A stretch of 46,342 nucleotides of DNA, taken from Candidatus Woesearchaeota archaeon (GTDB lineage Archaea > Nanobdellota > Nanobdellia > Pacearchaeales > GW2011-AR1). The notes beneath the pieces are model-generated. The model was given only the letters and a program-made list of their open reading frames with translations. It did not search any database and had not been told where the DNA came from. The position numbers and the translations under genes are program-made. Shown here in pieces: positions 1,942 to 46,342 of this stretch. The DNA is taken from assembly GCA_964360755.1 (NCBI GenBank), contig CAYHYE010000002.1, positions 1 to 46,342 on the forward strand. Reading direction: 5' to 3'. Within the stretch, counting starts at the first letter, position 1, and each line of letters opens with the position of its first letter.

Positions 1942-2643
1942 ATGGATTCATTTATAAAAAAAGTTTTCAATGGAAAAAGCGATGAACATGTACATTTGCA
2001 ATTTATGAGGTTTTCTCGTGGAGAATTTAAAGATAAGGCCCTTATAATTGCAAAAAAAACTAATAAAAATTTTTCTATAGCAACTAGTTATGAATATGCC
2101 AATGAACTTGTTAAAAATATTGCTGAAAAGTTAAAAGGTAACGAGAAAACAAGAATTACAGGAGCTATAATCTCAACTAGAGATTTAACTAATGAAATTA
2201 ACTTTAAAGAAAAAAAGCAATTTCAAGGAGTTAAAAAATACATTATTGATGAAGAAATGCCTAAGGAGCAAATAATTAATATTTGTGACAAATTTCCTAA
2301 GGCTTTTCTTGCTTTAAGTTTTAGTGTTGGGGACAATGAGTTAAAAATTAAGCCAAAGGCTCCCAAATCTTCAAAACCAAAAAAGGGAGATGATAAACCA
2401 AAAGTAGATTTTTGTAAATTAAAAACTTCTGATGAAAGTCTAGTTAAATTGCTTATATTTGATGTTAATGATTTTAAGAATGTTAATATTGTACATGATT
2501 TTATAATTGATGAAATTATAATACCTAAAAATGAAAGTGATCCTGTTAAAATGAGAGAAAATGCTATTAGGAAAGGTAAAATTATAAGATATTTAGATAT
2601 TGATGGAAAAAAAGAAGTTAGAGAGGCTAAATTTTCTATTTGA
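1942..2643 (+). CDS. hypothetical two-domain protein with a Lys/Pro-rich linker
   Basis: 233-aa ORF immediately upstream of rpl3 on the same strand. The linker is KPKAPKSSKPKKGDDKPK. No family recognised. Confidence 0.55.
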   Translation: MDSFIKKVFNGKSDEHVHLQFMRFSRGEFKDKALIIAKKTNKNFSIATSYEYANELVKNIAEKLKGNEKTRITGAIISTRDLTNEINFKEKKQFQGVKKYIIDEEMPKEQIINICDKFPKAFLALSFSVGDNELKIKPKAPKSSKPKKGDDKPKVDFCKLKTSDESLVKLLIFDVNDFKNVNIVHDFIIDEIIIPKNESDPVKMRENAIRKGKIIRYLDIDGKKEVREAKFSI

Positions 2644-2653
2644 TTAACACAGC

Positions 2654-2666
2654 AAGTTTTATAAAT
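2654..2666 (+). promoter_or_regulatory. putative BRE/TATA promoter of the ribosomal superoperon
   Basis: AAGTTTTATAAAT lies about 60 nt upstream of the rpl3 ATG. This implies a roughly 30-nt leader, unlike the leaderless-type spacing seen elsewhere in the window. Confidence 0.4.
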
Positions 2667-2722
2667 GCATTTTTTCTGGTTAATTTACCGTAAGATGGTA
2701 ATCTACTTCGTAAAAGAAAACT

Positions 2723-3679
2723 ATGGCAAAATTATCAAGACCCCGAAGAGGGAGTTTGCAATATTGGCCTCGAAAGAGAGCACTAAAGACTTTACCTAGT
2801 GTAAACTGGGACGGTATAATAAAAGCTAATTCTGATAAAAAAATTTTAGGATTTATAGGTTATAAAGTTGGTATGAAGAGCCTTTATGTTAAAGATAACA
2901 CCCCTGATTCTATGACGAAAAATAAGCGTATTGTTATCCCAATTACGATCCTCGAGTGCCCCCCGATGAAAATTCTTTCTGTTAGATTTTATAAAAATAA
3001 AAAAGTTGTTTCAGATGTACTATTAAATGATCTTGATAAAAGCTTAAAAAGAAAAATAAAAATTCCTGGTAAAATAACCAAAAAAATTGAAGATATTAAG
3101 GATTTTGATGATGTTAGAATTTTAGCTTATTCTCTTGTTAATAATACTAGTATTAAAAAAAGACCTGATATTGTTGAAATTGCCCTTTCAGGGACTAAAG
3201 AAGATAAATTGAATTTTATTAAAGAAAATCTTAACAAGGAAATTAATCCACAAGATGTTTTTAAATTGAAAGATTTAGTAGATACACATGGTCTAACAAA
3301 AGGAAAGGGACTGCAAGGACCTGTTAAAAGATTTGGAATAGGATTAAGACAACATAAATCAGAAAAAGGCCAGAGAAAAGTCGGTTCAATTGGACCTTGG
3401 CATCCTGCACGTGTTACATTTAGGACTCCAATGGCTGGACAACTTGGAATGTTTACAAGGGTTATTTATAATAATAAAATAATAGTGATCGGAAATGTTT
3501 CTAAAAATGATATAAATTTAAAATCAGGATTTAACAATTATGGGAAGATAAGTACAAATTATATTATTATTAATGGAAGTATCCAGGGTCCGCCAAAAAG
3601 ATCTTTAATTTTAACACATGCTTTAAGAAAAACAAGAAAACAAGAAAAGAAAAGTTATGAATTTATTGAATTAAGATGA
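2723..3679 (+). CDS. rpl3: 50S ribosomal protein uL3
   Basis: RPRRGSLQYWPRKRA N-terminus plus GKGLQGPVKRFG and WHPARV motifs. First gene of the conserved L3-L4-L23-L2 order. Confidence 0.95.
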   Translation: MAKLSRPRRGSLQYWPRKRALKTLPSVNWDGIIKANSDKKILGFIGYKVGMKSLYVKDNTPDSMTKNKRIVIPITILECPPMKILSVRFYKNKKVVSDVLLNDLDKSLKRKIKIPGKITKKIEDIKDFDDVRILAYSLVNNTSIKKRPDIVEIALSGTKEDKLNFIKENLNKEINPQDVFKLKDLVDTHGLTKGKGLQGPVKRFGIGLRQHKSEKGQRKVGSIGPWHPARVTFRTPMAGQLGMFTRVIYNNKIIVIGNVSKNDINLKSGFNNYGKISTNYIIINGSIQGPPKRSLILTHALRKTRKQEKKSYEFIELR

Positions 3680-4455
3680 AAGCGGATTTATTAAACATAA
3701 ATGGAGAAAAACAAGAAGAAATTGATTTGCCTAAAATCTTTTCCACTAAAATTAGACCAGATATAGTAAAAAAAGTTTATGATGCAGAAAGAACTTGGCA
3801 ACCTTATGGAAATGATCCAGAAGCTGGTAAAAAACATTCAGCATCAGGAGTAATAAGACATAAAAGACATGCATGGAAAGCCCATTATGGTAGAGGAATA
3901 TCTAGAGTACCTAGGAAAACCATGTGGCGTCGTGGGACGCAATTTTATTGGATAGGTGCAGAAATTTCAAGTGCTAGAGGTGGAAGAAGAGCCCATGGAC
4001 CAAAAAGATATATTCCTAATAAAAAGATAAATAAAAAAGAACGTAAAATTGCTTTGAATTCTAGTATAGCTTCAACAATAAATAAAAATTTTATAATGAA
4101 AAGATATTCAACTATTGACCAAGTTAAAAATAATCTTCCTTTAATTGTCAGTTCAAAGATTTTTGAATTAAAAACTAAGGAATTAGTTAATTCTATAGAT
4201 AAAATATTAGGAGATTTAAAAATTATCTCTAAGCAAGAGAAGGTTATAAGGGCAGGCAAGGGTAAGTTAAGGAATAGAAAATACAAAAAATCTTCTAGGA
4301 TTTTAATTGTTATGGGAAATGATGAAAAATTAAAAACAAAAATATTTGAGCAGGTTAAAGTTAATGATTTGAAAATTAGTTATTTGTATCCATTAGGTAG
4401 AATTGTAATTTATACTAAAAATGCAATAAATGATTTGGAGGAAAAAGAAAAATGA
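3676..4455 (+). CDS. rpl4: 50S ribosomal protein uL4
   Basis: AHYGRGISRVPR motif. ATGA overlap with the rpl3 stop. Conserved position. Confidence 0.93.
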   Translation: MKADLLNINGEKQEEIDLPKIFSTKIRPDIVKKVYDAERTWQPYGNDPEAGKKHSASGVIRHKRHAWKAHYGRGISRVPRKTMWRRGTQFYWIGAEISSARGGRRAHGPKRYIPNKKINKKERKIALNSSIASTINKNFIMKRYSTIDQVKNNLPLIVSSKIFELKTKELVNSIDKILGDLKIISKQEKVIRAGKGKLRNRKYKKSSRILIVMGNDEKLKTKIFEQVKVNDLKISYLYPLGRIVIYTKNAINDLEEKEK

Positions 4456-5105
4456 TTTCATTAGATATTGAAACAAGCGGTTTAGATTCAGGAAAATGTG
4501 GAATATGGCAAATAGGTGCTTTGGAAATTGAAAGTCCTGAAAATTATTTTTTAGAAGAAGGAAGAATAGATAACGAAGATATTGTTGAAAGTGGAGCTTT
4601 AAAAATAACGGGAAAAACAGAACTGGAATTGCGAGACCCACAAAAACAGTTACAGAAAGAAATGATAATGAATTTTCTTAAATGGGCAGAAACTTGTAAG
4701 GAAAGAATTCCTATTGGACAAAATGTTGGATGGGATATTACATTCATACAAAATAAAATATTAAGATATGGATTAAATAATGTATTTATAGAAGTAATGA
4801 ACCAAAGATCCATTGATGTTCATACTTTAGCTCAAGATAGATATCGCAAAATAAATGATGTGTATTTTATAGATGAAAAAGGAGCAAGCAAAATGAATAT
4901 GACAGAAACTTTAAAACTTTGTGGAATTCCAGACCATAGAATTGGATTAACTAAAGATGAGATGGTAAAAAAAGGAAAACCTCATAATGCTTTAGAAGAT
5001 GCAAGACTTAGTGCAGAATGTATTTCAAGATTGATTTATGGAAGAAATTTATTGCCAGAATATGTTAAATTTGAAATTCCACGGGAGCTAAAAAATGATA
5101 ATTAA
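4452..5105 (+). CDS. DEDDh-type (DnaQ/RNase T-like) 3'-5' exonuclease
   Basis: ExoI is SLDIETSGL, ExoII is GQNVGWDITFI and ExoIII is HNALEDARL (H-x4-D). The start overlaps the rpl4 stop (ATGA). The 3' end overlaps the rpl23 start by 11 nt. Confidence 0.8.
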   Translation: MISLDIETSGLDSGKCGIWQIGALEIESPENYFLEEGRIDNEDIVESGALKITGKTELELRDPQKQLQKEMIMNFLKWAETCKERIPIGQNVGWDITFIQNKILRYGLNNVFIEVMNQRSIDVHTLAQDRYRKINDVYFIDEKGASKMNMTETLKLCGIPDHRIGLTKDEMVKKGKPHNALEDARLSAECISRLIYGRNLLPEYVKFEIPRELKNDN

Positions 5106-5346: not shown

Positions 5347-6063
5347 ATGGGAAAATCATTAATACAACAAGCAAGAGGGCGAGGAAGTATGACTTATAGA
5401 GTCAGAAGAAGAGCTTTTAGATATAAAATTGGATATCCTCCTAATTTATCTGGTGACGGAGAAATTGTGAAATTAATTCATTCTGCTGGGCATAATGCAC
5501 CATTAGCAAAGGTTCTCTTTAATGGTAATGTATTTTATAACTTAGCTTCAAAAGGAATGTATCAAGGGCAAAAAATAGTTATTGGATCAAGTAAAGATAT
5601 TGGAGATATTTCACCATTAAAAGATATTCCTATTAGAACTCAAGTATATAATATTGAATCAAGACCATATGACGGAGGAAAATTTATTAGAAGTGCTGGA
5701 TCTTATGTTATAATATTAAAAAAAGAGCAAGGCAAAGTTATAGTATTAATGCCTTCTAAACAAGAAAAGGTTTTTAATGAAGCCTGTAGAGCAACTATAG
5801 GAGTTATTGCTGGGTCTGGAAGAAAAGATAAACCTATAATTAAAGCTGGAAAAAATTATTATATTAAAAAAGCAAAGAACAAACTTTGGCCTAGAACATC
5901 TGCTGTTGCAATGAATGTTGTTGATCATCCATTTGGAAGTGGAAGAGGCAAAAACTTGTCACATGGAGGCTTAGGAAAAGTTCCTAAAAGAAATGCTCCG
6001 CCTGGTGCGTTAGTTGGTTCAATAAGGGCTAAAAGAACAGGAAGAAAAAGAGGTAAGGAATAA
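5347..6063 (+). CDS. rpl2: 50S ribosomal protein uL2
   Basis: QQARGRGS N-terminus, VDHPFGSGRGK loop, basic RAKRTGRKRG tail, conserved position. Confidence 0.95.
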   Translation: MGKSLIQQARGRGSMTYRVRRRAFRYKIGYPPNLSGDGEIVKLIHSAGHNAPLAKVLFNGNVFYNLASKGMYQGQKIVIGSSKDIGDISPLKDIPIRTQVYNIESRPYDGGKFIRSAGSYVIILKKEQGKVIVLMPSKQEKVFNEACRATIGVIAGSGRKDKPIIKAGKNYYIKKAKNKLWPRTSAVAMNVVDHPFGSGRGKNLSHGGLGKVPKRNAPPGALVGSIRAKRTGRKRGKE

Positions 6064-6064
6064 A

Positions 6065-6478
6065 ATGTTAGAAAAAAAATTAAAGATTGAAAAGAAAAAG
6101 GAATTTACATATAGAGGCAAAAGTCTTGAAGAACTTAAACTTTTAGATATTAGGGAGTTTTCTAAACTTATTTCATCAAGGGAAAGAAGAACTATTTTAA
6201 GAAATACAGATATTATCGAAAATTTTTTATCTAGATGTAGGAAAAAAATTGATATGAAGAAACCAATTAAAACTCATAATAGGTCTTTAGTTATTGTACC
6301 TTTAATGATAGGAATGAATATAGGAATACATAATGGAAAAGGCTTTGAAAAAATTGAAATTATTCCAGAAATGCTTGGACATAGATTGGGAGAATTTGCA
6401 GTAACTAGATCATTAGTAAAACATGGAGCTGCAGGAATTGGAGCAACAAGAAGTTCTGCTTCTAGAAGTGTAAAATAA
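6065..6478 (+). CDS. rps19: 30S ribosomal protein uS19
   Basis: GHRLGEFAVTR motif; positioned after L2. Confidence 0.93.
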   Translation: MLEKKLKIEKKKEFTYRGKSLEELKLLDIREFSKLISSRERRTILRNTDIIENFLSRCRKKIDMKKPIKTHNRSLVIVPLMIGMNIGIHNGKGFEKIEIIPEMLGHRLGEFAVTRSLVKHGAAGIGATRSSASRSVK

Positions 6479-6479
6479 A

Positions 6480-7067
6480 ATGGCAGATGAGCAATTAAGA
6501 CAAATTGAAAAAACAAAAACAAAGAAATCAGAAAAAATTATAGTTCAAACTCCAAAAGAAGCTACAAAAGAAAAAGATAAAATTGAAAATAAGAAAGATG
6601 TAGAAGAAATTAAAGAAAACGAAATTAAAAATGTTGAAAAAAAAGAAAAAACTATTGTTAAAGCTCTAAAAAAAACAGAGTCTACCGTCTATGGTAAAAA
6701 TATTCCAATCTCTTTGAAGCATAGTGTTTACATAGGGAAATTTATAAAAGGTAAAAAAATTGATAATGCAATTATAGATTTACAAGAAGTAATTAAAAAG
6801 AGGAGAGCAATACCAATGTCTGGAGAAATGGCTCACAAAAGAGGAGCGGGAATGGCAACTGGTAAATATCCTTTTAAAGCTTCTAAAAATTTTATTAAAC
6901 TTTTGAAATCTCTTTCTGCAAATAGTATAAATCATGGGATGGATTTAGAAAAAACTAGAATTTATACAGTTATCCCTAACAAATCTTCTAAACAAATGCA
7001 TAGATTTGGAAGAACAATATTTAAGAAGACAGATATTAAAATTATAGCTAAGGAGGTTATTAAATAA
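6480..7067 (+). CDS. rpl22: 50S ribosomal protein uL22 with a Lys/Glu-rich N-terminal extension
   Basis: The uL22 core starts near aa 65 (VYGKNIPISLKHS...MAHKRGAGMATGKYP). It is preceded by about 60 aa of K/E low complexity. Position is S19-L22-S3. Confidence 0.9.
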   Translation: MADEQLRQIEKTKTKKSEKIIVQTPKEATKEKDKIENKKDVEEIKENEIKNVEKKEKTIVKALKKTESTVYGKNIPISLKHSVYIGKFIKGKKIDNAIIDLQEVIKKRRAIPMSGEMAHKRGAGMATGKYPFKASKNFIKLLKSLSANSINHGMDLEKTRIYTVIPNKSSKQMHRFGRTIFKKTDIKIIAKEVIK

Positions 7068-7070
7068 AAA

Positions 7071-7700
7071 ATGGAAGAAAGAAAGTTCGTAGCATTAAAA
7101 AAAGAAGAATATACAATTAAGGAATTTGTAAAAAAATATTTAGGAAAGGGGAAATTTAGTAAAGTTCGTGTTGATTATACTCCAATTGGGGAGAAGATAA
7201 TTATAGTTACAAGCAAACCAGGACTTATAATTGGTCGTGGTGGAGAAAAAATAAATAGTTTAACTGATGTATTAAAAAAGAAATTTAAATTTGAGAATCC
7301 ACATATTGAAATTCAAGAGATTAAAAATCAAAATCTTGATGCTCAATCTATTGCCGATGAAATTGCAATAAATATTGAAACTAGGGGTTCTTTAAAATTT
7401 AAGATAATTGCTTATAGATTATTAAAACAAATTATTGATTCTGGTGCTTTAGGAGTTGAATTAAAATTAAGCGGTAGATTACCAAGTGCAAGAGCTCGTT
7501 CATGGAGATTTAAGAAAGGTTATTTAAAAAAAGTTGGTGATAGCTCAAAAATTGTTGATAGAGCAAGTTCTATTGCTGAGACAAATATGGGAACTGTTGG
7601 AATACAAGTTAGTATATTACACCCAGATGCAAAAATACATGATATTATTAATCTAAAAAATAAAAAATTAAAATTAAGTGAGGAAAAAAATAATGAATAA
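7071..7700 (+). CDS. rps3: 30S ribosomal protein uS3
   Basis: KH-domain motif GLIIGRGGEKI plus SGRLPSARARSW; conserved position. Confidence 0.94.
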   Translation: MEERKFVALKKEEYTIKEFVKKYLGKGKFSKVRVDYTPIGEKIIIVTSKPGLIIGRGGEKINSLTDVLKKKFKFENPHIEIQEIKNQNLDAQSIADEIAINIETRGSLKFKIIAYRLLKQIIDSGALGVELKLSGRLPSARARSWRFKKGYLKKVGDSSKIVDRASSIAETNMGTVGIQVSILHPDAKIHDIINLKNKKLKLSEEKNNE

Positions 7701-29074: not shown

Positions 29075-30055
29075 TTATATAAATTTTAAAACTTCATCAA
29101 CTGAAATGCTTTTTGTTAAAGCTTCGTCATATTGATCCATTTTAGCAGGGAAAAAGTCAAAAAGCATTGGTGATGTTATTTTTTTAAGCATACTATATCC
29201 CTCTATTTCATAAGAAGAAGTGCAAAAAAATAAACCAATAACTATTTTATTTAATCCTAGGGCTACATGAAGGGCTAAAGTATCTGCACAAATTATTATA
29301 TTACATATATTAATTAAGGCAAAAAAATCTTTTAAAGAATTTGAAGTATTTTTTGAATATATTTTAATGTTATTATTTAAAAGGTCTTTTTCTATTTCAT
29401 TCATTTTTTCTTTTTCATCCAATCCACCAAGCAAAATTATTTCATAACCTCTTTCTTTAACTTTCATAATAAATTCTATGATATTATATTTATGCCAGGC
29501 TTTTGATGGCCATTTTTTGGATGAACCGATGTTAAGTCCTAAAATTTTTTTATTTTTTAAATTATTTTCAATTAAAAAATTATTTATTATATGTTTAGAA
29601 TTTTCTGGAATAAATAGGCTCATTTTCTGTTTTTTCCATGGTAATTTACATATTTCAAAAATCATTTCTTGATATGTTTTTCTGTTAGATTTTTTTAAAT
29701 CATCATCGAAAACAGTGTTCAAATAATAATTTGCCTCTTCATTAAAAGCAGATGGAAATCCACCATTATCATAATAACCAAATTTTTCTTTAGCATTTAT
29801 TTTTAAAGCTAATTTAGTCGCTTCTTCTTCAATATCTAAACTATAAAGAATATCAAATTCCCCTAAATTATCAAGATCTAAAGGTAATGTCAGTATTTTA
29901 TTTATATAATGATTTCCTTCCAAAATCTCATAAGATGATTTTATAGTTATCCAAATTATTTTAGAATCTGGATATTTTTCTTTAACAGCTAATAAGATTG
30001 GTGTGGTTCTAACTACATCGCCTAAAGCCCCTAATTTAATTATACAGATTTTCAT
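29075..30055 (-). CDS. glycosyltransferase family 9 (heptosyltransferase family)
   Basis: N-terminal KICIIKLGALGDVVRTTPIL, central NIGSSKKWPSKAW and C-terminal CADTLALHVALGL. These are the three hallmark GT9 (RfaC/RfaF-like) blocks. Confidence 0.8.
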   Translation of the reverse strand: MKICIIKLGALGDVVRTTPILLAVKEKYPDSKIIWITIKSSYEILEGNHYINKILTLPLDLDNLGEFDILYSLDIEEEATKLALKINAKEKFGYYDNGGFPSAFNEEANYYLNTVFDDDLKKSNRKTYQEMIFEICKLPWKKQKMSLFIPENSKHIINNFLIENNLKNKKILGLNIGSSKKWPSKAWHKYNIIEFIMKVKERGYEIILLGGLDEKEKMNEIEKDLLNNNIKIYSKNTSNSLKDFFALINICNIIICADTLALHVALGLNKIVIGLFFCTSSYEIEGYSMLKKITSPMLFDFFPAKMDQYDEALTKSISVDEVLKFI

Positions 30056-30058
30056 GAT

Positions 30059-30072
30059 AAGGTTTAAAACTA
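30059..30072 (+). promoter_or_regulatory. putative TATA promoter for the 30092 gene pair
   Basis: AAGGTTTAAAACTA is centred about 26 nt upstream of ATG 30092. Confidence 0.35.
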
Positions 30073-30076
30073 TAAG

Positions 30077-30091
30077 CTTTATTTAAAGATT
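30077..30091 (-). promoter_or_regulatory. putative TATA promoter for the GT9 gene
   Basis: The minus strand reads AATCTTTAAATAAAGC, centred about 29 nt upstream of the ATG at 30055. It shares the 36-bp divergent spacer with the 30059-30072 element. Confidence 0.35.
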
Positions 30092-30514
30092 ATGAAAGCA
30101 TATATAGCTGGAAAAATAGGAACTGAAATTGAAAAAGAAGAACTTGAAAAAATTGATAAAATATCTAAAGAATTAGGATTTGGAACATTTCTTCCACATA
30201 GAGATGTAGGAGTTGCAAAAAATATGGATGACGTAACAAGAATATTTGAAGGTGATATAATTAAAGGTTTTAAAGATATTAAATTAGTTATAGCTAATTT
30301 AAACGGTTTGCATGTTGGAGCAGGAACAGCTTGGGAGTTAGGATATGCTTATGCAAATAAGATTCCAGTAATTGGATTAAAAACAGATGAGTCTATCGGA
30401 GAAGCGTTTGACCAATTAAGCGCTATTTTAATTGGTAGTATGAAAATTGTAACAAGTTTTGACGAATTAAAAAAGGAACTTATAAAGTTTAAAAACAAAT
30501 GGAAAATAAATTAA
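30092..30514 (+). CDS. nucleoside 2-deoxyribosyltransferase-family (NDT/Rcl-like) protein
   Basis: KAYIAGKI start and GAGTAWELGYAYANKIPVIGL block (conserved Glu in G-T-x-x-E-x-G-Y). 140 aa with a Rossmann-like pattern. Confidence 0.65.
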   Translation: MKAYIAGKIGTEIEKEELEKIDKISKELGFGTFLPHRDVGVAKNMDDVTRIFEGDIIKGFKDIKLVIANLNGLHVGAGTAWELGYAYANKIPVIGLKTDESIGEAFDQLSAILIGSMKIVTSFDELKKELIKFKNKWKIN

Positions 30515-30984
30515 AGCAGATAGGTGATTTAGAAAAAATTGTTGATACCTTAAGACAAGATAAGAAATTAATCGTAACAACAAATGGAACTTTTGATATA
30601 CTTCATTATGCACATGTTATCTTACTTCAAAAAGCAAAAAATCAAGGAGATGTTTTGATTGTTTTATTAAATAGTGATGCCTCTGTTAAAAAAAATAAAG
30701 GTGAAAAAAGACCAATAATCAACCAATATGAAAGAGCTATGATGCTTTCATCATTACAATGTATAGATTATGTAACAATTTTTAATGAAGACACTCCATT
30801 AAAATACTTGGAAATTATAAAACCTGAGTTTCATGTTAAGGGCGGGAGTTTTATTAAAGAAAGAATAAATCAAGAAAAAAATCTAGTTGAAAGAAATAAA
30901 GGAGTTTATATTGTTTTTGAACTAGAAGAAGGGTTTTCAACAACTGGTATAATTGATAAGATTATGGCTTCTTATAATAGTTAA
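30499..30984 (+). CDS. heptose-1-phosphate nucleotidyltransferase, HldE/RfaE domain-II-like (cytidylyltransferase fold)
   Basis: NGTFDILHYAHV...LNSDASVKKNKGEKRPI...NEDTP...HVKGG...GFSTTGIIDKI runs colinear with the C-terminal adenylyltransferase domain of E. coli HldE, compared from memory. 16-nt overlap with the upstream NDT-like gene. Confidence 0.7.
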   Translation: MENKLKQIGDLEKIVDTLRQDKKLIVTTNGTFDILHYAHVILLQKAKNQGDVLIVLLNSDASVKKNKGEKRPIINQYERAMMLSSLQCIDYVTIFNEDTPLKYLEIIKPEFHVKGGSFIKERINQEKNLVERNKGVYIVFELEEGFSTTGIIDKIMASYNS

Positions 30985-40043: not shown

Positions 40044-41450
40044 TTAAGATTTTGCCCAGATTTCTACAAAAGACTCACCAATATTATCAAATTTTTTTTC
40101 TAATTGAAAATTTTCTTTTATACATTCTAAATTTTCTTCACCAAGAAATTTTTTTCTATGTGTTAAGATTAAATAATCCTGCATCTTTGAGAATTTGCAA
40201 AAGTCCGTTAAATCAAAAACAGATACTACGCTTGGAGCTATAAAAAAAAGTTTATAGTTATTTTCATAATTACCTAAAAAATAATATATTGGATTATCTG
40301 AAAAGACTTCAGAGTTTTTTGGTATTAGTAAGTTAATTTGTTCTATAATTGTTTCAGGACTATTAGATCTATTTTTTATAAATTCATTTAAAAATGTCAA
40401 AGAGGAATATATAAAAAATATAATGATTAATACTGAAAGTATTTTATTTAGTTCTTTGTTTTTTATATATGAAAAAGAATATACTACATAAATTGATATA
40501 AATGGAATAAATTGAAATAAATGTTGCTCAAATATCTCTTTACTTAAAACTAAAAAGATTAACATTATAATAAAGTAATTTATGAAAAAACTTTCTAGTT
40601 TTTTTTCTTTACCTTGCTTAATAAATATAAATGGAATTAATAATCCAAACATTGAGATAATTAATAAAAAAAGCTTCCCTATAACTAAGATTTTACTCGA
40701 AGAACCTGTGAATAAAATATTGAAAGTAATAATAGAATAAAAAAATTTACTAAAACCTATTGTGTATAAAAAATAAGAGAGTAATGGTATACTAATAACA
40801 ATTATTCCTAAGATTATAAGAATATTATTTCTTAAAATATTTTTAAACAATTCATGTTTTTTATGATACAAATAAATTTGATGTGTTAAGATACTAATAA
40901 AGAATATGATTCCTGGTTGTTTGAACCATATAGAAAAACCAATAAAAATTCCAGATAATAGTAATAAAATTGGTTTTTCTTTGTTAAGGTGAGATAAATA
41001 AAAATAAACGCCCCAAAGTCCAAAAATTATCATGGGGATTTCCATTGCAGGAATATTTGTAATAAAAAAAACAGATGAAATTGCTGTTGAGATAATTGCT
41101 AGTTTGTAGCTTAACATAAGTTTTGTTACAATAAAAATAGATATTAATAAAATAACTCCTATGAAAAATGAAAACACATTAGTTGAGATAATAGACTCTC
41201 CAAAAAGTTTAAAAAATAATGCTAAGGAATAATAAGTTAGTGGTGGTTTATGGTCAAAAAGGTCTATATATGGTAACTTGCCATTATTAATTTCTTTTGC
41301 AATATATGATAATGCTCCAGTATCAAATCCTGGTGGTTGTGAAAAAATTAAATATATCTTGAAAGATAAAACAAAAATTAAAACAAAAACTGAAATAATT
41401 AAAGTAAGGTTTTTAATAAATATATTTTCATTTGTAAGTTTATTTTCCAT
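40044..41450 (-). CDS. GT-C fold membrane glycosyltransferase (ArnT/PMT-like)
   Basis: 468 aa. The first loop, PPGFDTGALSYIAKEINNGKLPYIDLFDHKPPL, matches the ArnT/PMT_2 pattern, and there are more than 10 TMs. The minus-strand AGCTTATAAATAAAT (41467-41481) sits about 24 nt upstream. Confidence 0.7.
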   Translation of the reverse strand: MENKLTNENIFIKNLTLIISVFVLIFVLSFKIYLIFSQPPGFDTGALSYIAKEINNGKLPYIDLFDHKPPLTYYSLALFFKLFGESIISTNVFSFFIGVILLISIFIVTKLMLSYKLAIISTAISSVFFITNIPAMEIPMIIFGLWGVYFYLSHLNKEKPILLLLSGIFIGFSIWFKQPGIIFFISILTHQIYLYHKKHELFKNILRNNILIILGIIVISIPLLSYFLYTIGFSKFFYSIITFNILFTGSSSKILVIGKLFLLIISMFGLLIPFIFIKQGKEKKLESFFINYFIIMLIFLVLSKEIFEQHLFQFIPFISIYVVYSFSYIKNKELNKILSVLIIIFFIYSSLTFLNEFIKNRSNSPETIIEQINLLIPKNSEVFSDNPIYYFLGNYENNYKLFFIAPSVVSVFDLTDFCKFSKMQDYLILTHRKKFLGEENLECIKENFQLEKKFDNIGESFVEIWAKS

Positions 41451-41534: not shown

Positions 41535-42839
41535 ATGGCAAAAATAGGAATAATTGGTGGAGGATATACTGGACTTGGAGTAGGATATTACTTAAAAGAC
41601 TTAACTAATCATGAAGTAACAATTATTGAGCATAATAATTTTGTTGGAGGATTAGCTTCTGGAATAAAAGTTAAAGAATGGGAATGGCCTGTTGATAAAG
41701 TTATTCATCATTTTTTTACAAGCGATAGCTATGCACTAGGTATCGCCAAAGAAATTGGAATGGGTGATAAATTAATCATAAAAGATACTAAATCTTCATG
41801 TTATTATAATGGTAAAATAGCAGAACTAGATTCTCCATTTTCATTATTAAAATTTCCATTTATTTCTTTCATAAATAGGTTGAGAACAGGACTTGTTATG
41901 TTTTGGATAAGATTAGACAAAAATTATTTAAAATATGAAAAAATTACGTCTTTTAATTTTATAAAAAAGTATATGGGCAAGAATTCTTTTGAAGTTATTT
42001 GGAAACCTCTTTTTAATGGGAAATTTGGAAAATATGCTGAACAGATTAATGCTGCCTGGTTTTGGGCTAGAATACATCCACGTACAAAGAATTTAGCTTA
42101 TATTGGTGGAGGATTTCAAACATATGCTGATAAAATTGCAGATGAAATTAAAAAATCTAATGCTAAGATTATGCTAAACTCAAAAATTAGAAAAATTAAG
42201 CACAATAATGGGAAATTTGAAGTATTTATTGGAAAGAAAAAATTTATTTTTGATATAATTGTATTTGCTGTACCACTACAAGTTGCTCTTAAATTATTTA
42301 AATTTCCTAAAGAATATTATGAAAATCATAGCCAATTAAAGTCAATTGGCGCTCAATATTTTGTTTTAGAATTAAATCATAGTTTTCTTGATGATGGGAC
42401 TTATTGGTTAAATGTTAATGACGAAACTTTTCCATTTATGATGGTGGCAGAACACACAAATTTTATTGATAAAAAATATTATAATAATAAACACATTATT
42501 TGGGTTGGAAAATATCTTGATTATGATGATAAATTATGGCAGCTTAGTGAAGATAAATTCCTTGAAATGATTATCCCTTGTTTGAAAAAAATTAATCCTA
42601 GGTTTGAACGTTCTTGGATTAATAGGAGTTTTTTTACTCGTTTTACAAATGCTCAGCCAATACTCCCACTGAATTATTCTAAGATGATTCCGCCTATAGA
42701 AACACCAATAAAAAATTTATTTATAGCAAATATGAATCATATATATCCTTGGGATAGGGGAACTAACCAAGCACTTTGGTTAGGAGAGAAAGTAGCTAAT
42801 ATACTTAAAAATAATGTTCTTTTAAAAAATAATAAATAA
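41535..42839 (+). CDS. FAD/NAD(P)-binding oxidoreductase (amine-oxidase / phytoene-desaturase / PPO-like fold)
   Basis: KIGIIGGGYTGLGVGYYL dinucleotide-binding motif, followed by EHNNFVGGLASG and a C-terminal WDRGTN region. 434 aa. Confidence 0.65.
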   Translation: MAKIGIIGGGYTGLGVGYYLKDLTNHEVTIIEHNNFVGGLASGIKVKEWEWPVDKVIHHFFTSDSYALGIAKEIGMGDKLIIKDTKSSCYYNGKIAELDSPFSLLKFPFISFINRLRTGLVMFWIRLDKNYLKYEKITSFNFIKKYMGKNSFEVIWKPLFNGKFGKYAEQINAAWFWARIHPRTKNLAYIGGGFQTYADKIADEIKKSNAKIMLNSKIRKIKHNNGKFEVFIGKKKFIFDIIVFAVPLQVALKLFKFPKEYYENHSQLKSIGAQYFVLELNHSFLDDGTYWLNVNDETFPFMMVAEHTNFIDKKYYNNKHIIWVGKYLDYDDKLWQLSEDKFLEMIIPCLKKINPRFERSWINRSFFTRFTNAQPILPLNYSKMIPPIETPIKNLFIANMNHIYPWDRGTNQALWLGEKVANILKNNVLLKNNK

Positions 42840-42845
42840 AATAAT

Positions 42846-43757
42846 TTAATTAATATTTCGATATGAATCTGCAGCTTCTTCAAAGTCTTTTAATGTAATA
42901 TGGGTCATTGGATGAGATAATGAATTGCCTATTATCACATTATTAGTTTTAATAGTTCGTAGAGTTTTTTTAATTTCTGGGATATTGTTTAAGCCTTCTA
43001 CAATTTTCTTAGGAATTGTTATAACTTGTGGTCTACATAAAGCGATTTTGTAAATGTCTTCCGGTAACCTAATACTTCCAACAATTAAAGAACTACTAGT
43101 ATCATCAAGTTTTTTAGCAACATAAGCTATTTGTTCTAATGTTCTACTCCAAGCTTGATCAAGAAATTTATCTTTTTCTACTTTTATAATATCTTTCCAA
43201 TTTCCATTATTGCTAATTGTATTTAAGCTTCCTGTTGCAAGCTCAACTATGTGGCCATCTAACATTCTATTTGCAAATAAACTTACATAAGTAGCTCCAG
43301 CTTTTGCAGCTTCCAATGCTTGATATGGAGTCATACAAGCTGTAACATTTGTTTTTATTCCTATCTTTGAAAGATATTCAGTAGCAATAATACCACCTCT
43401 AGATATTGGTATTTTTACAACAACTCTAGGACTTAAACTTGAAAGAACATTTGCTTGTTGTAATAAAGTTAATTTTACATCATCTACTCTTGAATCTAGA
43501 TCAGATAAATTAATTCCATTATGTGGAGGTTTAGTTTTATTTGGTTCTCTTAAATCAGTTTCAAGACTTACATCTATATTAGTATATCTTTCTAAAATAG
43601 ATTTACATGCTTGTTCAAAATTTGTAATTCCTGCGTTTTTCATTATTCTGGGATTTGTTGTTATACCGTCATTTACTCCTTTAGAAAAACAATAGTCTAT
43701 TTCAGAATGATCCGCTGTATCTGCAAAAAATTTAATATATGATTTCATTATTCCCAT
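42846..43757 (-). CDS. transaldolase / fructose-6-phosphate-aldolase family protein
   Basis: FFADTADHSEI...GVNDGITTNPRIM N-terminal block and VVVKIPISRGG (Schiff-base Lys context). At 303 aa it is longer than the minimal TalC/FSA type. 26-nt overlap with gmhA. Confidence 0.7.
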   Translation of the reverse strand: MGIMKSYIKFFADTADHSEIDYCFSKGVNDGITTNPRIMKNAGITNFEQACKSILERYTNIDVSLETDLREPNKTKPPHNGINLSDLDSRVDDVKLTLLQQANVLSSLSPRVVVKIPISRGGIIATEYLSKIGIKTNVTACMTPYQALEAAKAGATYVSLFANRMLDGHIVELATGSLNTISNNGNWKDIIKVEKDKFLDQAWSRTLEQIAYVAKKLDDTSSSLIVGSIRLPEDIYKIALCRPQVITIPKKIVEGLNNIPEIKKTLRTIKTNNVIIGNSLSHPMTHITLKDFEEAADSYRNIN

Positions 43758-44457
43758 TAATATTTTGTTTTTTTAGTATATCATTCAATTGAATTTTAAT
43801 TATAGGGTCTTCAGATTCATCTGCTAGAGATTTTATTTTATTAATTACATCTTTTTTTGAGTAATCATTAATTAAATCTACTAGTCTAAAAATGATTAAA
43901 TGCTGTAAAACTCCATGAAATCCTTCAACATGTGGAGTAGAATCTTTTGGTACAACAATACAAGCATCAGCCATCTCTTTTAATTTTCCACCATTAAAGC
44001 CAGATAATCCTAAAATTTTAGCTCCCCTTTCTTTTGCTAATTGCATTGCTTGGACAATATTACCAGACCATCCTGAACCACCATGAACTGAAATTAATAG
44101 AACTACATCGTCTTTGTCCAATAAAGTATTTAATAATCCAGTATAAGCATTGTCCCATCCAGAATCATTTGTCCAAGCAGTTAATGAAGCTACATTATCA
44201 TTTAAACAAATAGATTTAAATCCCTTTACTTTACTAATTTCTTTCATAGAACTGGTATTTGCAACAGTTTTTAGTAAATCTCCTGTAAAATGAGATGCTG
44301 TGCTTGAGGATCCACCATTTCCAACAGTAATAATTTTATTATTATTTTTCCAGGCATCAAATAATATTTTTATAAATTTATCAATGTCTTCTTTATTGAT
44401 AATTTGAGCTATTTCTTGAGTTTCTTTCAAATATTTTTCTATATATTCTTTATTCAT
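43732..44457 (-). CDS. gmhA: SIS-domain phosphoheptose (sedoheptulose-7-P) isomerase, GmhA-like
   Basis: KIITVGNGGSSSTASHFTGDL, NDSGWDNAY, DVVLLISVHGGS, GLSGFNGGKL..ADACIVVP and EGFHGVLQH run colinear with E. coli GmhA blocks, compared from memory. Confidence 0.7.
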   Translation of the reverse strand: MNKEYIEKYLKETQEIAQIINKEDIDKFIKILFDAWKNNNKIITVGNGGSSSTASHFTGDLLKTVANTSSMKEISKVKGFKSICLNDNVASLTAWTNDSGWDNAYTGLLNTLLDKDDVVLLISVHGGSGWSGNIVQAMQLAKERGAKILGLSGFNGGKLKEMADACIVVPKDSTPHVEGFHGVLQHLIIFRLVDLINDYSKKDVINKIKSLADESEDPIIKIQLNDILKKQNINGNNEIIY

Positions 44458-45440
44458 CTTACATCCAGCATAATTTTACTTCCATCCATATCAAATCTAA
44501 AAGGAACGTACATTAATCCTTTACTAGTCATTGCTCTAATAAACTCTTTTATATTTGTATCACAATAAAACAATAAAAATCCTCCACCTCCAGCCCCCAT
44601 AATTTTCCCACCAAGGGCTCCATTTTTTAAACCAATCTCATACAAATTATCTATTCTTTCATCAGACATTTTATCTGATGTTTTCTTTTTTGTTTCCCAA
44701 TGTAAATTCATTAATCTTCCAAATTTTTTTGTATCGCCTTTTTCAAGTGTATTTTTTATATCAAGGCCTATTTGCTTAATTTGTTTCATGCTCTCTAGTT
44801 TAGCTTCATCACTTAACACGGATTTGCTTTGATCTTTTAAAATTTCTATAGAATCTCTTATTATTCCTGTAAAAAACATATGTAAATTAACTTCTAAATC
44901 CCTAATAGTTTCATATGATAAATTTAATGGACTTACAAAAACAGTTCCTTCTTTATTTATTTTTAAATGATTTAACCCGCCTATTGCTGATGCATATTGG
45001 TCTTGTTTTCCAATAGGCTCTTTTAAGATTTCAATTTCTATTTTAGCAGCTTCTTCTGCTAAAGTTTTAGAGCTTACATTTTCTCCTTTATATGCGTGAA
45101 GGGCTTTTAGCAACCCAACTGTAAATGCTCCAGAACTACCTAAACCAGAACTTCCAGGAACTTCAGATATTGTAGAGATTTCAAGAGTGTCATTAATATT
45201 GAGAAGTTTTAAAGCCTCTCTAACTCTATCATTCTCTATTTCGTTAATTTTATCAACATTCTCTGTTTTTGAATAAGCTATCCTATATTTATCATGAAAA
45301 TGTCTTCTTGATACTGTTACATAAATATATTTTGAAAAGGCTGCAGTTACTAGTTCTCCACCAAATTTTGGATAAAAAAATGGTAAATCAGTGCCACCTC
45401 CACCTAAAGGAAGTCTTAAAGGAGTTTTAGTAATTATCAT
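44454..45440 (-). CDS. GHMP-family sugar kinase, HddA-like (D-glycero-D-manno-heptose-7-P 1-kinase candidate)
   Basis: TKTPLRLPLGGGGTDLP, PGSSGLGSSGAF, GKQDQYASAIGG and GAGGGGFLLFY motifs. 4-nt overlap with gmhA. Confidence 0.65.
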   Translation of the reverse strand: MIITKTPLRLPLGGGGTDLPFFYPKFGGELVTAAFSKYIYVTVSRRHFHDKYRIAYSKTENVDKINEIENDRVREALKLLNINDTLEISTISEVPGSSGLGSSGAFTVGLLKALHAYKGENVSSKTLAEEAAKIEIEILKEPIGKQDQYASAIGGLNHLKINKEGTVFVSPLNLSYETIRDLEVNLHMFFTGIIRDSIEILKDQSKSVLSDEAKLESMKQIKQIGLDIKNTLEKGDTKKFGRLMNLHWETKKKTSDKMSDERIDNLYEIGLKNGALGGKIMGAGGGGFLLFYCDTNIKEFIRAMTSKGLMYVPFRFDMDGSKIMLDVR

Positions 45441-45511: not shown

Positions 45512-46342
45512 TTATAAATAGGAAGTGGTAACACCTCGTCTCTTTTGGAAATCAGCTTTTATCGATATTAATTCAAGAACCTCTTTTATTAAAGCTTTAA
45601 TAATTTCTGGTTTTATTTTAACAAAAAAGCCTTTCGAAGATGATTCAGCTTCTGAAACTCCTGCAATTCTTGGCCTATGGGTTACTGGAAGCTCTTTAAT
45701 TCTAAACCCCAGTGATTTAGCTTTTACAAGAAATTCTGCATCTCCACCTCTATCATGAACTATGGGTTTTATTTTATTAACAACTTGTTTTTTGCAAAGC
45801 TTGAAAGCGCAGTCAACATCTTTAAAATTTAACCCTAATAAAAATCTTAAAGTTAGATTATACAATTTTGAATATACTATCCTCATAAAAGGATCTTGTC
45901 TTTTTTCCCTATATCCTATCACAATATCATAATTTTTTATATAAGGCATAAATTTATTCAATTCATTAACATTAAACTGCCTATCTGAATCTGTGTAAAA
46001 AATAATATCATTTTTTGCATTTTCCCAACCTGTTCCTATTTGTTTTCCATAACCAACAAATTTTTTCTGTTCAACAACTCTTATATTTTTATGTTTTTTT
46101 TCCAATTCTTCAGCAATTTTTAAAGTATTGTCTTTTGAAACATTAATCACAAGAATTAATTCATAGGTTAAAAAATTATTTTCTAAAAACTTTAAAATAT
46201 CTTCTGAAACTTCTTTTAGATTTCCTTCTTCATTATAAGCAGGAATAAAAAAAGAAATTGGTATTTCATATTTTTTTTTATTTTCTTCAATTCTTAATTT
46301 TACTTTTCCAGATTCTATTTCATTTTTAGCATTTAAATAACG
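45512..46342 (-). CDS. GT2 polyprenyl-phosphate glycosyltransferase (DPM1/ArnC-like); 5' end runs off the window
   Basis: The track starts it at GTG 46150, but the same frame stays open to the window edge. That upstream frame encodes the canonical N-terminus IPISFFIPAYNEEGNL...YELILVINVSKDN. Downstream motifs are TDSDRQ, VDCAFKL and ELPVTHRPRIAGVS. Confidence 0.75.
   Translation of the reverse strand, partial: RYLNAKNEIESGKVKLRIEENKKKYEIPISFFIPAYNEEGNLKEVSEDILKFLENNFLTYELILVINVSKDNTLKIAEELEKKHKNIRVVEQKKFVGYGKQIGTGWENAKNDIIFYTDSDRQFNVNELNKFMPYIKNYDIVIGYREKRQDPFMRIVYSKLYNLTLRFLLGLNFKDVDCAFKLCKKQVVNKIKPIVHDRGGDAEFLVKAKSLGFRIKELPVTHRPRIAGVSEAESSSKGFFVKIKPEIIKALIKEVLELISIKADFQKRRGVTTSYL

Follow-up and report, generated by a model that had tools for sequence, protein, structure and literature searches.

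A conserved DPANN gene cluster with a built-in transaldolase, predicted to make a nucleotide-activated heptose

Near one end of a 46,342-nt contig of a Candidatus Woesearchaeota archaeon (CAYHYE010000002.1; the whole stretch is referred to here as the window), three overlapping genes on the minus strand encode a GHMP sugar kinase of the HddA/WcbL (heptose-7-phosphate 1-kinase) family (44454..45440, 328 aa), a GmhA-like SIS isomerase of a distinct subfamily, H-D-E-H (43732..44457, 241 aa), and a long-form TalC-type transaldolase, abbreviated TAL (42846..43757, 303 aa). We propose that these genes belong to a conserved DPANN cluster that makes a nucleotide-activated heptose by an alpha-type (HddA-type) route from central sugar phosphates, a reading to which we assign a probability of roughly 0.68. 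The activated seven-carbon sugar would most likely be destined for the cell surface. The host of the window is a DPANN archaeon: profile scans identify an archaeal ribosomal-protein operon (S4e, L19e, archaeal L2, L6 and SecY), GC content is ~27%, and named homologues of the kinase, SIS and TAL proteins are almost all from Nanoarchaeota, Pacearchaeota or Woesearchaeota. The ribosomal-protein operon thus supports the archaeal origin proposed in a preliminary description of this DNA. That description also reported three minus-strand open reading frames (ORFs) with overlaps of 4 and 26 nt, and its coordinates agree with the sequence at base level. The ATGA at 44454-44457 is common to the stop codon of the kinase gene and the start codon of the SIS gene, a 4 nt overlap; the TAL ATG is at 43757 and the SIS stop codon TAA at 43734-43732, a 26 nt overlap that would shrink to 17 nt if an alternative in-frame TAL ATG at 43748 were used. 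The motifs quoted there (GKQDQY, GAGGGGF, GNGGS..HF and FFADTAD..TTNP) are all found in the translations.

Evidence that the three genes act together comes from the conservation of their association. Homologues of the kinase at 55-79% identity lie in the same kinase-SIS-TAL gene order. Scanning species-representative genomes with a TAL alignment uncovered 20 loci at 41% identity or more, two of which re-sample contigs already seen (L020 = L005 and L026 = L001). All but one of these species-level loci carry DPANN names, the exception (L025) being labelled Marinamargulisbacteria. The SIS gene is clustered with or fused to TAL in 19/20, the kinase gene lies ahead of SIS-TAL in 16/20, and NTP_transferase and HAD genes are both present in at least 12/20. 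SIS-TAL fusions occur in four loci (L001, L013, L015 and L024); in L001, for example, the two domains form a single protein of 493 aa. Such fusion proteins also make up 14 of the best 120 TAL protein clusters. Independent metagenomic loci (L002, L003, L006 and L007) have the same pattern, a HAD gene lies between SIS and TAL in L008, and even short, distant versions of TAL (L002 and L028) are found in the same association. The kinase-SIS-TAL arrangement is therefore beyond chance. To our knowledge, sedoheptulose-7-P is the only metabolite common to a transaldolase and a GmhA-type enzyme, so the SIS-TAL fusions are Rosetta-stone evidence for a dedicated supply line. The suggestion that the transaldolase is tied directly to heptose activation, made earlier from this one stretch of DNA, is thus strengthened by the clustering, the position of the kinase gene and the recurrent fusion proteins.

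The kinase is closest to known heptokinases. It matches Pfam GHMP_kinases_N and GHMP_kinases_C, and its best NCBIfam model is HddA NF049969 at 188.5 bits, below the equivalog cut-off of 600 bits; fucokinase and mevalonate kinase models score 92 and 87. Heptokinases also take the first four places among its PDB relatives (WcbL 4usm and 4usk, Bacteroides 3k85 and Campylobacter HddA 4n3o), with scores of 154-162 bits, and fucokinase reaches 64. Comparison with other GHMP kinases, which had been proposed as a check on the heptose assignment, hence favours heptokinases, the HddA profile scoring twice as high as that of the next family. There are more than 7,900 homologues, and those with names are mostly from Nano- or Pacearchaeota. 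JGI automatic annotation labels these cluster proteins as heptose kinase and sedoheptulose-7-P isomerase. In known systems, the NTP_transferase fold takes alpha-sugar-1-phosphates. The presence of such a partner, described below, is consistent with formation of an alpha-anomeric heptose 1-phosphate by the kinase, but is no proof of it.

TAL matches Pfam TAL_FSA at 112 bits and scores 100 bits on TIGR00875 (cut-off 246). Its best PDB matches are the decameric TalC-type transaldolases 1vpx, 3r8r and 3s0c, and the same three are the top Foldseek folds for its AF2 model (pLDDT 92.4). In an alignment of 24 TAL family members, Asp13, Asn35, Glu66, Lys115, Thr139, Phe161 and Arg164 are invariant; Lys115, in VVKIP, is the Schiff-base lysine. 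A subfamily-specific C-terminal extension (H282-R300) is conserved in the same 24 members. We also considered whether TAL is an FSA-type aldolase. Phe161 aligns with TacTal Phe132 at a switch position where FSA aldolases carry Tyr, and on this ground the FSA identity was rejected.

The isomerase is unusual. It matches Pfam SIS_2, and GmhA is its best-scoring NCBIfam family (TIGR00441, 97.6 bits; DiaA, 57), albeit below the cut-off of 209.45 bits. Its best PDB sequence matches are GmhA. Foldseek with the AF2 model (pLDDT 90.9) places GmhA at all of ranks 1-24 (E ~1e-13, TM 0.82-0.86), followed by DiaA, with the remaining SIS proteins ~1e5-fold weaker. Its key residues are Thr53, His56, Asp60, a phosphate loop at S123-N133 (SVHGGSGWSGN), Glu178 and His181. 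The pattern H-D-E-H occupies the GmhA zinc-ligand positions in 28/28 cluster-type SIS sequences, and D..E..H is kept in 117/120 SIS homologue clusters. The cluster-type loop is SVHGGSGWSGN or longer, 3-9 residues beyond the canonical one, and Thr53, three residues ahead of the first His, is invariant in the subfamily (GGSxSTASH versus canonical GGSAADAQH). For the canonical comparison we used two PDB sequences and 20 SIS proteins that adjoin HldC or HldE genes. The two switched positions are Glu and Gln in both PDB sequences and in 20/20 of these proteins; the full H-E-Q-H set is present in both PDB sequences and in 17/20, and the short STSGxSxN-type loop in 19/20. The corresponding residues H64, E68, Q175 and H183 have been called completely conserved among GmhA orthologues (PMC5705639), and Asp61 of Burkholderia pseudomallei GmhA, three residues before the first His, is a water-channel residue (PMC5705639). 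Judged by sequence, then, the window protein fails the defining features of canonical GmhA and is a member of a distinct, large, DPANN-centred subfamily, of which we found no description in the literature searched. The outcome named earlier as a refutation, grouping with KpsF- or DiaA-type proteins, is not what we see: GmhA is the closest family, even though this is no canonical member of it. Only its context, namely fusion to TAL and HddA-like, GmhB-like and HddC-like neighbours, suggests that it acts on sedoheptulose-7-P.

Two steps of an alpha-type route, a GmhB-type HAD phosphatase and an HddC-type nucleotidyltransferase, had been described as not visible in the window. This is an artefact of the contig end. 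An ORF for a family 2 glycosyltransferase (GT2), listed as 45512-46150, starts at an internal GTG, and its frame stays open up to the contig end. Within this extended frame, 46295-46342 encodes RYLNAKNEIESGKVKL, the first 16 residues, which match the extreme C-terminus of the NTP_transferase domains of L001 (232-247 of 248), L003 and L007. Residues from 23 on (~45512-46276) are the orthologue of the cluster GT2 in L005, L006 and L007, at 50-70% identity. The minus-strand feature at 45512..46342 is thus the 3' part of a fused nucleotidyltransferase-GT2 gene that is cut by the contig end, as the open frame, the tail match and a longer contig, L114, all indicate. The exact TAL protein is also found in other assemblies from the same groundwater site. 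One of them, L114, shares 99.92% identity with the window over 3,706 nt and runs 7.4 kb further. The gene order on L114 is HAD, SDR, nucleotidyltransferase-GT2, kinase, SIS, TAL; the HAD-IIIA/GmhB-like phosphatase has 197 aa, the SDR is GalE-like and the NTP_transferase-GT2 fusion has 503 aa. HAD proteins of relatives score best on GmhB models and have DRDG and C-x-H...C-x-C motifs. The HAD step had been correctly described as absent from the window, where tblastn with four GmhB-like HADs from relatives gave no such gene, but it is present upstream of the kinase on L114. The HddC-type transferase, by comparison, does extend into the window, so a cytidylyltransferase-fold gene at 30499-30984 is not the only nucleotidyltransferase candidate there, as had been claimed. 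On the evidence of L114, the predicted repertoire of the host includes all four alpha-type families (GmhA, HddA, GmhB and HddC). A contig from another sample, L116, departs from L114 at the exact base where the window ends (window 46342; L114 7416; L116 654), so the window end is an assembly or strain breakpoint. Both contigs match the window as far as that base. Beyond it, L114 enters the NTP_transferase domain and L116 enters an unrelated adhesin-like ORF, leaving a 22-residue remnant before GT2; L116 is either a strain variant without the transferase domain or a chimeric assembly.

How might the cluster work? We infer the following route from the genes present, the families they belong to, their conservation, the fusions and the residues of the active sites; the individual activities, the sugar and its stereochemistry, the nucleotide and the lipid step are all predictions. 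First, TAL would move a dihydroxyacetone unit from fructose-6-P to erythrose-4-P, yielding sedoheptulose-7-P. Second, the GmhA-like SIS protein would convert sedoheptulose-7-P to heptose-7-P, canonically D-glycero-D-manno. Third, the GHMP kinase would phosphorylate heptose-7-P at C1. Fourth, the GmhB-like HAD, encoded outside the window and upstream in the same population, would take off the 7-phosphate. Fifth, the HddC/ManC-type nucleotidyltransferase would form a nucleoside diphosphate (NDP)-heptose, which the GalE-like SDR may then modify. Finally, the fused GT2 would pass the sugar to dolichyl phosphate, and PMT_2 GT-C enzymes would use the resulting donor outside the membrane. ATP use in the third step and pyrophosphate release in the fifth would pull the near-equilibrium first and second steps forward, which would explain why their genes are co-transcribed or fused. 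The preliminary description had linked the built-in transaldolase to an incomplete pentose-phosphate pathway. Transketolase and transaldolase have been reported in many Woese- and Pacearchaeota (PMC8407392), making a supply of erythrose-4-P plausible and that rationale unnecessary.

The lipid step is suggested by the fused GT2 and by the genes that flank the operon. The best solved relatives of the window GT2 are ArnC, GtrB and Pyrococcus furiosus DPMS (E 1e-11 to 3e-13), with other GT2s at 1e-5 or worse, and the cluster GT2s of L001, L003, L008, L025 and L007 best match PgfS, a dolichyl-phosphate (Dol-P)-hexose transferase, AglJ, ArnC and PpgS. Because the nucleotidyltransferase is fused to a GT2 of the Dpm1/ArnC/GtrB class, the activated sugar is probably passed to dolichyl phosphate, which suggests use of the heptose outside the membrane. 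The fusion protein itself has no membrane segment (maximum hydropathy 1.13). Two conserved neighbours are found on the other side of the operon. An amine-oxidase-like flavin adenine dinucleotide (FAD) oxidoreductase of the PRK07233 family is encoded on the plus strand at 41535..42839 (NCBIfam NF005560, 389 bits, above the cut-off of 252), and a homologue with 61-65% identity also follows TAL in L005, L006 and L007. A PMT_2-family GT-C membrane glycosyltransferase, encoded on the minus strand at 40044..41450 (Pfam PMT_2, 49.9 bits), adjoins the oxidoreductase, as it does in the same three loci, where the pair comes directly after TAL; this protein is a candidate user of the lipid-phosphate-sugar donor. 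A term search of the literature gave nothing relevant on a lipid-phosphate-heptose donor. A bolder version of the proposal, which we put forward only tentatively, is that DPANN archaea make dolichyl-phosphate-heptose via the fused NDP-heptose synthase/glycosyltransferase for use by GT-C enzymes outside the membrane, and that the TAL-coupled H-D-E-H isomerase may give a C2 epimer unlike that of any known heptose pathway.

Several findings weigh against an alpha-type heptose route, or at least against its details. All the operon proteins score far below NCBIfam equivalog cut-offs, so the kinase, SIS and TAL assignments, which Pfam and NCBIfam uphold as they were first made, are at the level of family only. 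The module is not invariant: L010 has no HAD and no NTP_transferase domain, and L022 has a long-form TAL but no SIS gene. No source of erythrose-4-P is visible on the window contig, and tblastn with the GtrA-like protein of L001 detected no GtrA-like flippase in the window or in L114. The nucleotidyltransferase domain of L114 scores 146 bits on archaeal GlmU, 132 on ManC, 117 on MurU and 115 on HddC (cut-off 300); since the first three do as well as HddC, neither the nucleotide nor the sugar is fixed by this comparison. Lastly, the window isomerase has Thr in place of GmhA Asp61, Asp in place of Glu68, which is the catalytic and zinc-binding Glu, and Glu in place of Gln175, so the canonical Glu/His tail that had been read in its sequence does not hold. 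In B. pseudomallei GmhA, the Q175E single mutant is inactive and D61A retains 6% activity (PMC5705639). Given the inactivity of Q175E, the substrate or the product could differ in the archaeal enzyme.

This last point leads to the alternative that survives best, in which the steps are unchanged and the rebuilt SIS site yields a different C2 epimer, such as D-glycero-D-gluco-heptose-7-P, giving a heptose outside the known bacterial pathways. The coupled changes of Glu to Asp, Gln to Glu and Asp61 to Thr, together with the longer phosphate loop, run through 28/28 sequences and 117/120 clusters, and since Q175E alone kills canonical GmhA, the natural variant must work somewhat differently. We nevertheless think this unlikely. 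In fold and in best matches the protein is closest to GmhA, the kinase and phosphatase that act downstream are ordinary members of manno-heptose families, and a compensated active site with unchanged chemistry is just as possible.

The ambiguity of the nucleotidyltransferase opens up another alternative, that the heptose families have been re-used for a hexose. The SIS protein would convert fructose-6-P to mannose-6-P, the kinase and HAD would replace phosphomannomutase, the ManC-like domain would make GDP-mannose, GT2 would make dolichyl-phosphate-mannose for the PMT_2 enzymes, and TAL would feed in fructose-6-P. Mannose-1-P guanylyltransferase is indeed the first or second model match of the nucleotidyltransferases, the GT2 resembles Dol-P-mannose/Dol-P-hexose synthases, the GT-C neighbours are PMT_2 enzymes, and the longer SIS phosphate loop could suit a sugar one carbon shorter. 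This scheme is improbable because the SIS, kinase and HAD proteins each best match heptose-specific families, and because fructose-6-P is a central metabolite that needs no dedicated, often fused, transaldolase, whereas sedoheptulose-7-P is, as far as we know, the sole metabolite that links a transaldolase to a GmhA-type enzyme.

A further possibility involves a second set of heptose-related genes in the window. An HldC/RfaE-domain-II-like heptose-1-P nucleotidyltransferase is encoded on the plus strand at 30499..30984 (TIGR02199, 164.7 bits; cut-off 181.5), and its C-terminal LEEGFSTT fits the motif (F/L)xxG-x-STT, with Phe for the Arg of the (F/L)xxGRSTT motif described for heptose nucleotidyltransferases (PMC11573728). 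It overlaps a nucleoside 2-deoxyribosyltransferase-like (NDT-like) gene, and this pair is transcribed divergently from a gene for a glycosyltransferase of GT9, the heptosyltransferase family (the three genes span 29075-30984). The GT9 gene lies on the minus strand at 29075..30055; its product scores 55 bits on Pfam Glyco_transf_9 and, below their cut-offs, 60-66 bits on the heptosyltransferase I, II and III models. The preliminary description suggested a hybrid of the alpha and beta pathways; in such a route, the product of the GHMP kinase would be used by this HldC-like transferase, and the ADP-heptose formed would serve GT9. None of the window ORFs scanned contains a PfkB domain. There is some support for such a hybrid: no PfkB kinase or HAD gene lies beside the HldC-like and GT9 genes; heptose-7-P would be common to both branches; and in L022, a Woesearchaeota metagenome-assembled genome, a distant GHMP kinase gene (90 bits on the HddA model) overlaps a cytidylyltransferase-fold gene that resembles HldC (82 bits) at 5849-7268, followed by GT2, with the long-form TAL 3 kb from the pair. 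The evidence on the other side is stronger, and we regard the hybrid as very improbable. An HddC-type transferase is present and fused within the operon, with its tail in the window and the whole gene on L114. Among the 42 loci that hold an HldC relative and have adequate flanks, none combines it with a GHMP kinase; the three closest (L034-L036) carry PfkB-HAD-HldC. In known systems, HldC enzymes take the beta anomer, and HddA enzymes produce the alpha anomer. The HldC-like and GT9 genes probably form a beta-type branch of their own, for which the kinase and phosphatase genes would lie elsewhere in the genome. Relatives of the HldC-like gene are at most ~52% identical (55% in one partial match), and they adjoin canonical GmhA-type SIS genes or GmhB-like HADs, or sit inside HldE-length ORFs. 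L034 also has NDT-like (38% identity) and GT9 (46% identity) neighbours. The CTP_transf_like genes of L005 and L007 were considered as orthologues of the window HldC-like gene and rejected: identity is 35%, and on the HldC model they score 82-89 bits, the window protein 165. In L034, the PfkB kinase (2449-3777) has a C-terminal cupin domain that resembles lyxose/mannose-6-P isomerases, and in L036 a stand-alone cupin gene (7205-7567) lies ahead of SDR-PfkB-HAD-HldC, in a neighbourhood that lacks a SIS gene; in clusters of this type, a cupin isomerase may stand in for GmhA.

Least probable of all is that TAL is a housekeeping pentose-phosphate enzyme whose place beside heptose genes means nothing for its function, since, even allowing for a possible dual role, it is clustered with or fused to SIS in 19/20 genomes, fusions account for 14/120 of its best clusters, and the long subfamily has its own conserved C-terminal extension. 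DPANN surveys class transaldolase as a pentose-phosphate enzyme, and reconstructions count a "transaldolase family protein" in the same way; gene order and fusions suggest that its main job may be heptose supply.

The loci related to the alpha-type cluster vary. L025, labelled as a bacterium of the Marinamargulisbacteria (41% GC), bears the full NTP_transferase-HAD-kinase-SIS-TAL-GT2 set, by lateral transfer or through a binning error. In L007 (4008-5300), a methyltransferase-like C-terminal domain comes after the NTP_transferase domain; in L010 (5662-7155), the SDR is fused straight to this C-terminal domain, and the transferase domain appears to have been deleted. B12-binding radical SAM genes, together with one SPASM radical SAM gene, recur around the heptose cluster in several lineages (L001 2551-4065 and 11794-13284; L002 935-6105 and 14229-15359; L003 16414-16984; L114 2340-5049), and these enzymes may modify the sugar or the lipid carrier. 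P-loop AAA_33-like and NUDIX proteins also recur in the cluster (L005 8631-9919; L002 9221-9847; L003 2933-4369). The two are fused in L003, and in L002 the AAA_33-like gene lies between a nucleotidyltransferase-HAD fusion and TAL. Searching the window by tblastn with the NUDIX, AAA_33 and thiamine pyrophosphate (TPP) enzyme sequences of relatives gave no real matches.

The operon is at the end of a glycosylation island that spans 18041 to the window end. The island encodes AglB/STT3, a GT4 (MraY/WecA-like), flippase-like proteins, several GT2 and GT1 enzymes, three PMT_2 GT-C enzymes, and the GT9 and HldC-like proteins, one of each, discussed above. Scans of the window for tRNA genes and Rfam families gave no matches. 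An ORF for an RNase_T-like 3'-5' exonuclease (4452-5105) lies within the ribosomal-protein operon, between L4 (3676-4455) and L2 (5347-6063).

What would be the implications of such a cluster? DPANN archaea are attached to or dependent on other cells, and surface sugars matter for this lifestyle. If the cluster works as proposed, many of them put resources into a seven-carbon sugar, with precursor supply wired into the pathway. Its interest lies mainly in the rebuilt active site of the isomerase, in the Rosetta-stone fusions and in the lipid-phosphate-heptose step that we predict. First, the H-D-E-H subfamily is a natural counter-example to a "completely conserved" GmhA zinc site, and it naturally carries a change that inactivates the bacterial enzyme, making it a test case for the GmhA mechanism and for inhibitor design. 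Second, the nucleotidyltransferase-GT2 fusion predicts a lipid-phosphate-heptose donor, and this can be tested directly. Archaea were already known to contain heptose: it is present in the Thermoplasma N-glycan (PMC11407970), an ADP-heptose cluster has been noted in "Iplasma" (PMC3750248), and a summary of Tang et al. 2024 reports beta-type heptose enzymes from across the archaea (PMC11573728). Nothing relevant was found in the literature searched on a transaldolase within a heptose cluster, on SIS-TAL fusions or on heptose in DPANN archaea. The type of pathway is known from bacteria, and we found no description of the built-in transaldolase, the rebuilt isomerase site or the fusion of the nucleotidyltransferase to a lipid-sugar transferase.

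Each part of the cluster can be set beside a known system. Canonical GmhA (PDB 2x3y, 1tk9 and 2i22) and the window isomerase have the same fold (Foldseek TM ~0.83, rmsd 2.4-2.9 A), the GNGGS motif and both zinc-binding His residues, but GmhA has the STSGxSxN loop with Asp61, Glu68 and Gln175, whereas the window protein has SVHGGSGWSGN with Thr, Asp and Glu. TalC-type transaldolases of subfamily 5 (Thermotoga maritima 1vpx, Bacillus subtilis 3r8r and Thermoplasma acidophilum 3s0c) have the TIM barrel and full catalytic set in common with the window TAL, which differs in being ~70-80 residues longer, with residues inserted after strand 3 and the C-terminus extended by a conserved segment (HPMT...FE.AA.SYR), and, judging from gene order and fusion, in being dedicated to heptose genes. 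The ADP-heptose (beta) pathway is represented in the window by the HldC-like transferase with its STT motif and by GT9, but that branch lies 12 kb from the operon with no adjoining PfkB kinase or phosphatase and would not be the operon's default outlet. In three-component polyprenyl-phosphate glycosylation systems (GtrA/GtrB/Gtr*, ArnC/ArnT and DPMS/PMT, as well as the pentofuranose systems, PMC11127046), a GT2 of the Dpm1/ArnC/GtrB class works with a GT-C partner, and the window likewise has such a GT2 near a PMT_2 GT-C gene; the differences are that neither the window nor L114 yielded a GtrA-like flippase, that the GT2 is fused to a sugar-1-P nucleotidyltransferase and lacks a membrane segment, and that the sugar would be a heptose. 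Finally, the bacterial alpha-type NDP-heptose pathway has the same four families in one cluster (SIS, GHMP heptokinase, HAD-IIIA GmhB-like and NTP_transferase-fold). The proteins described here score well below the equivalog cut-offs for that pathway, and the archaeal version is set apart by its DPANN host, its H-D-E-H isomerase, a nucleotidyltransferase fused to a polyprenyl-phosphate-type GT2, and a built-in TalC-type transaldolase that is often fused to the isomerase.

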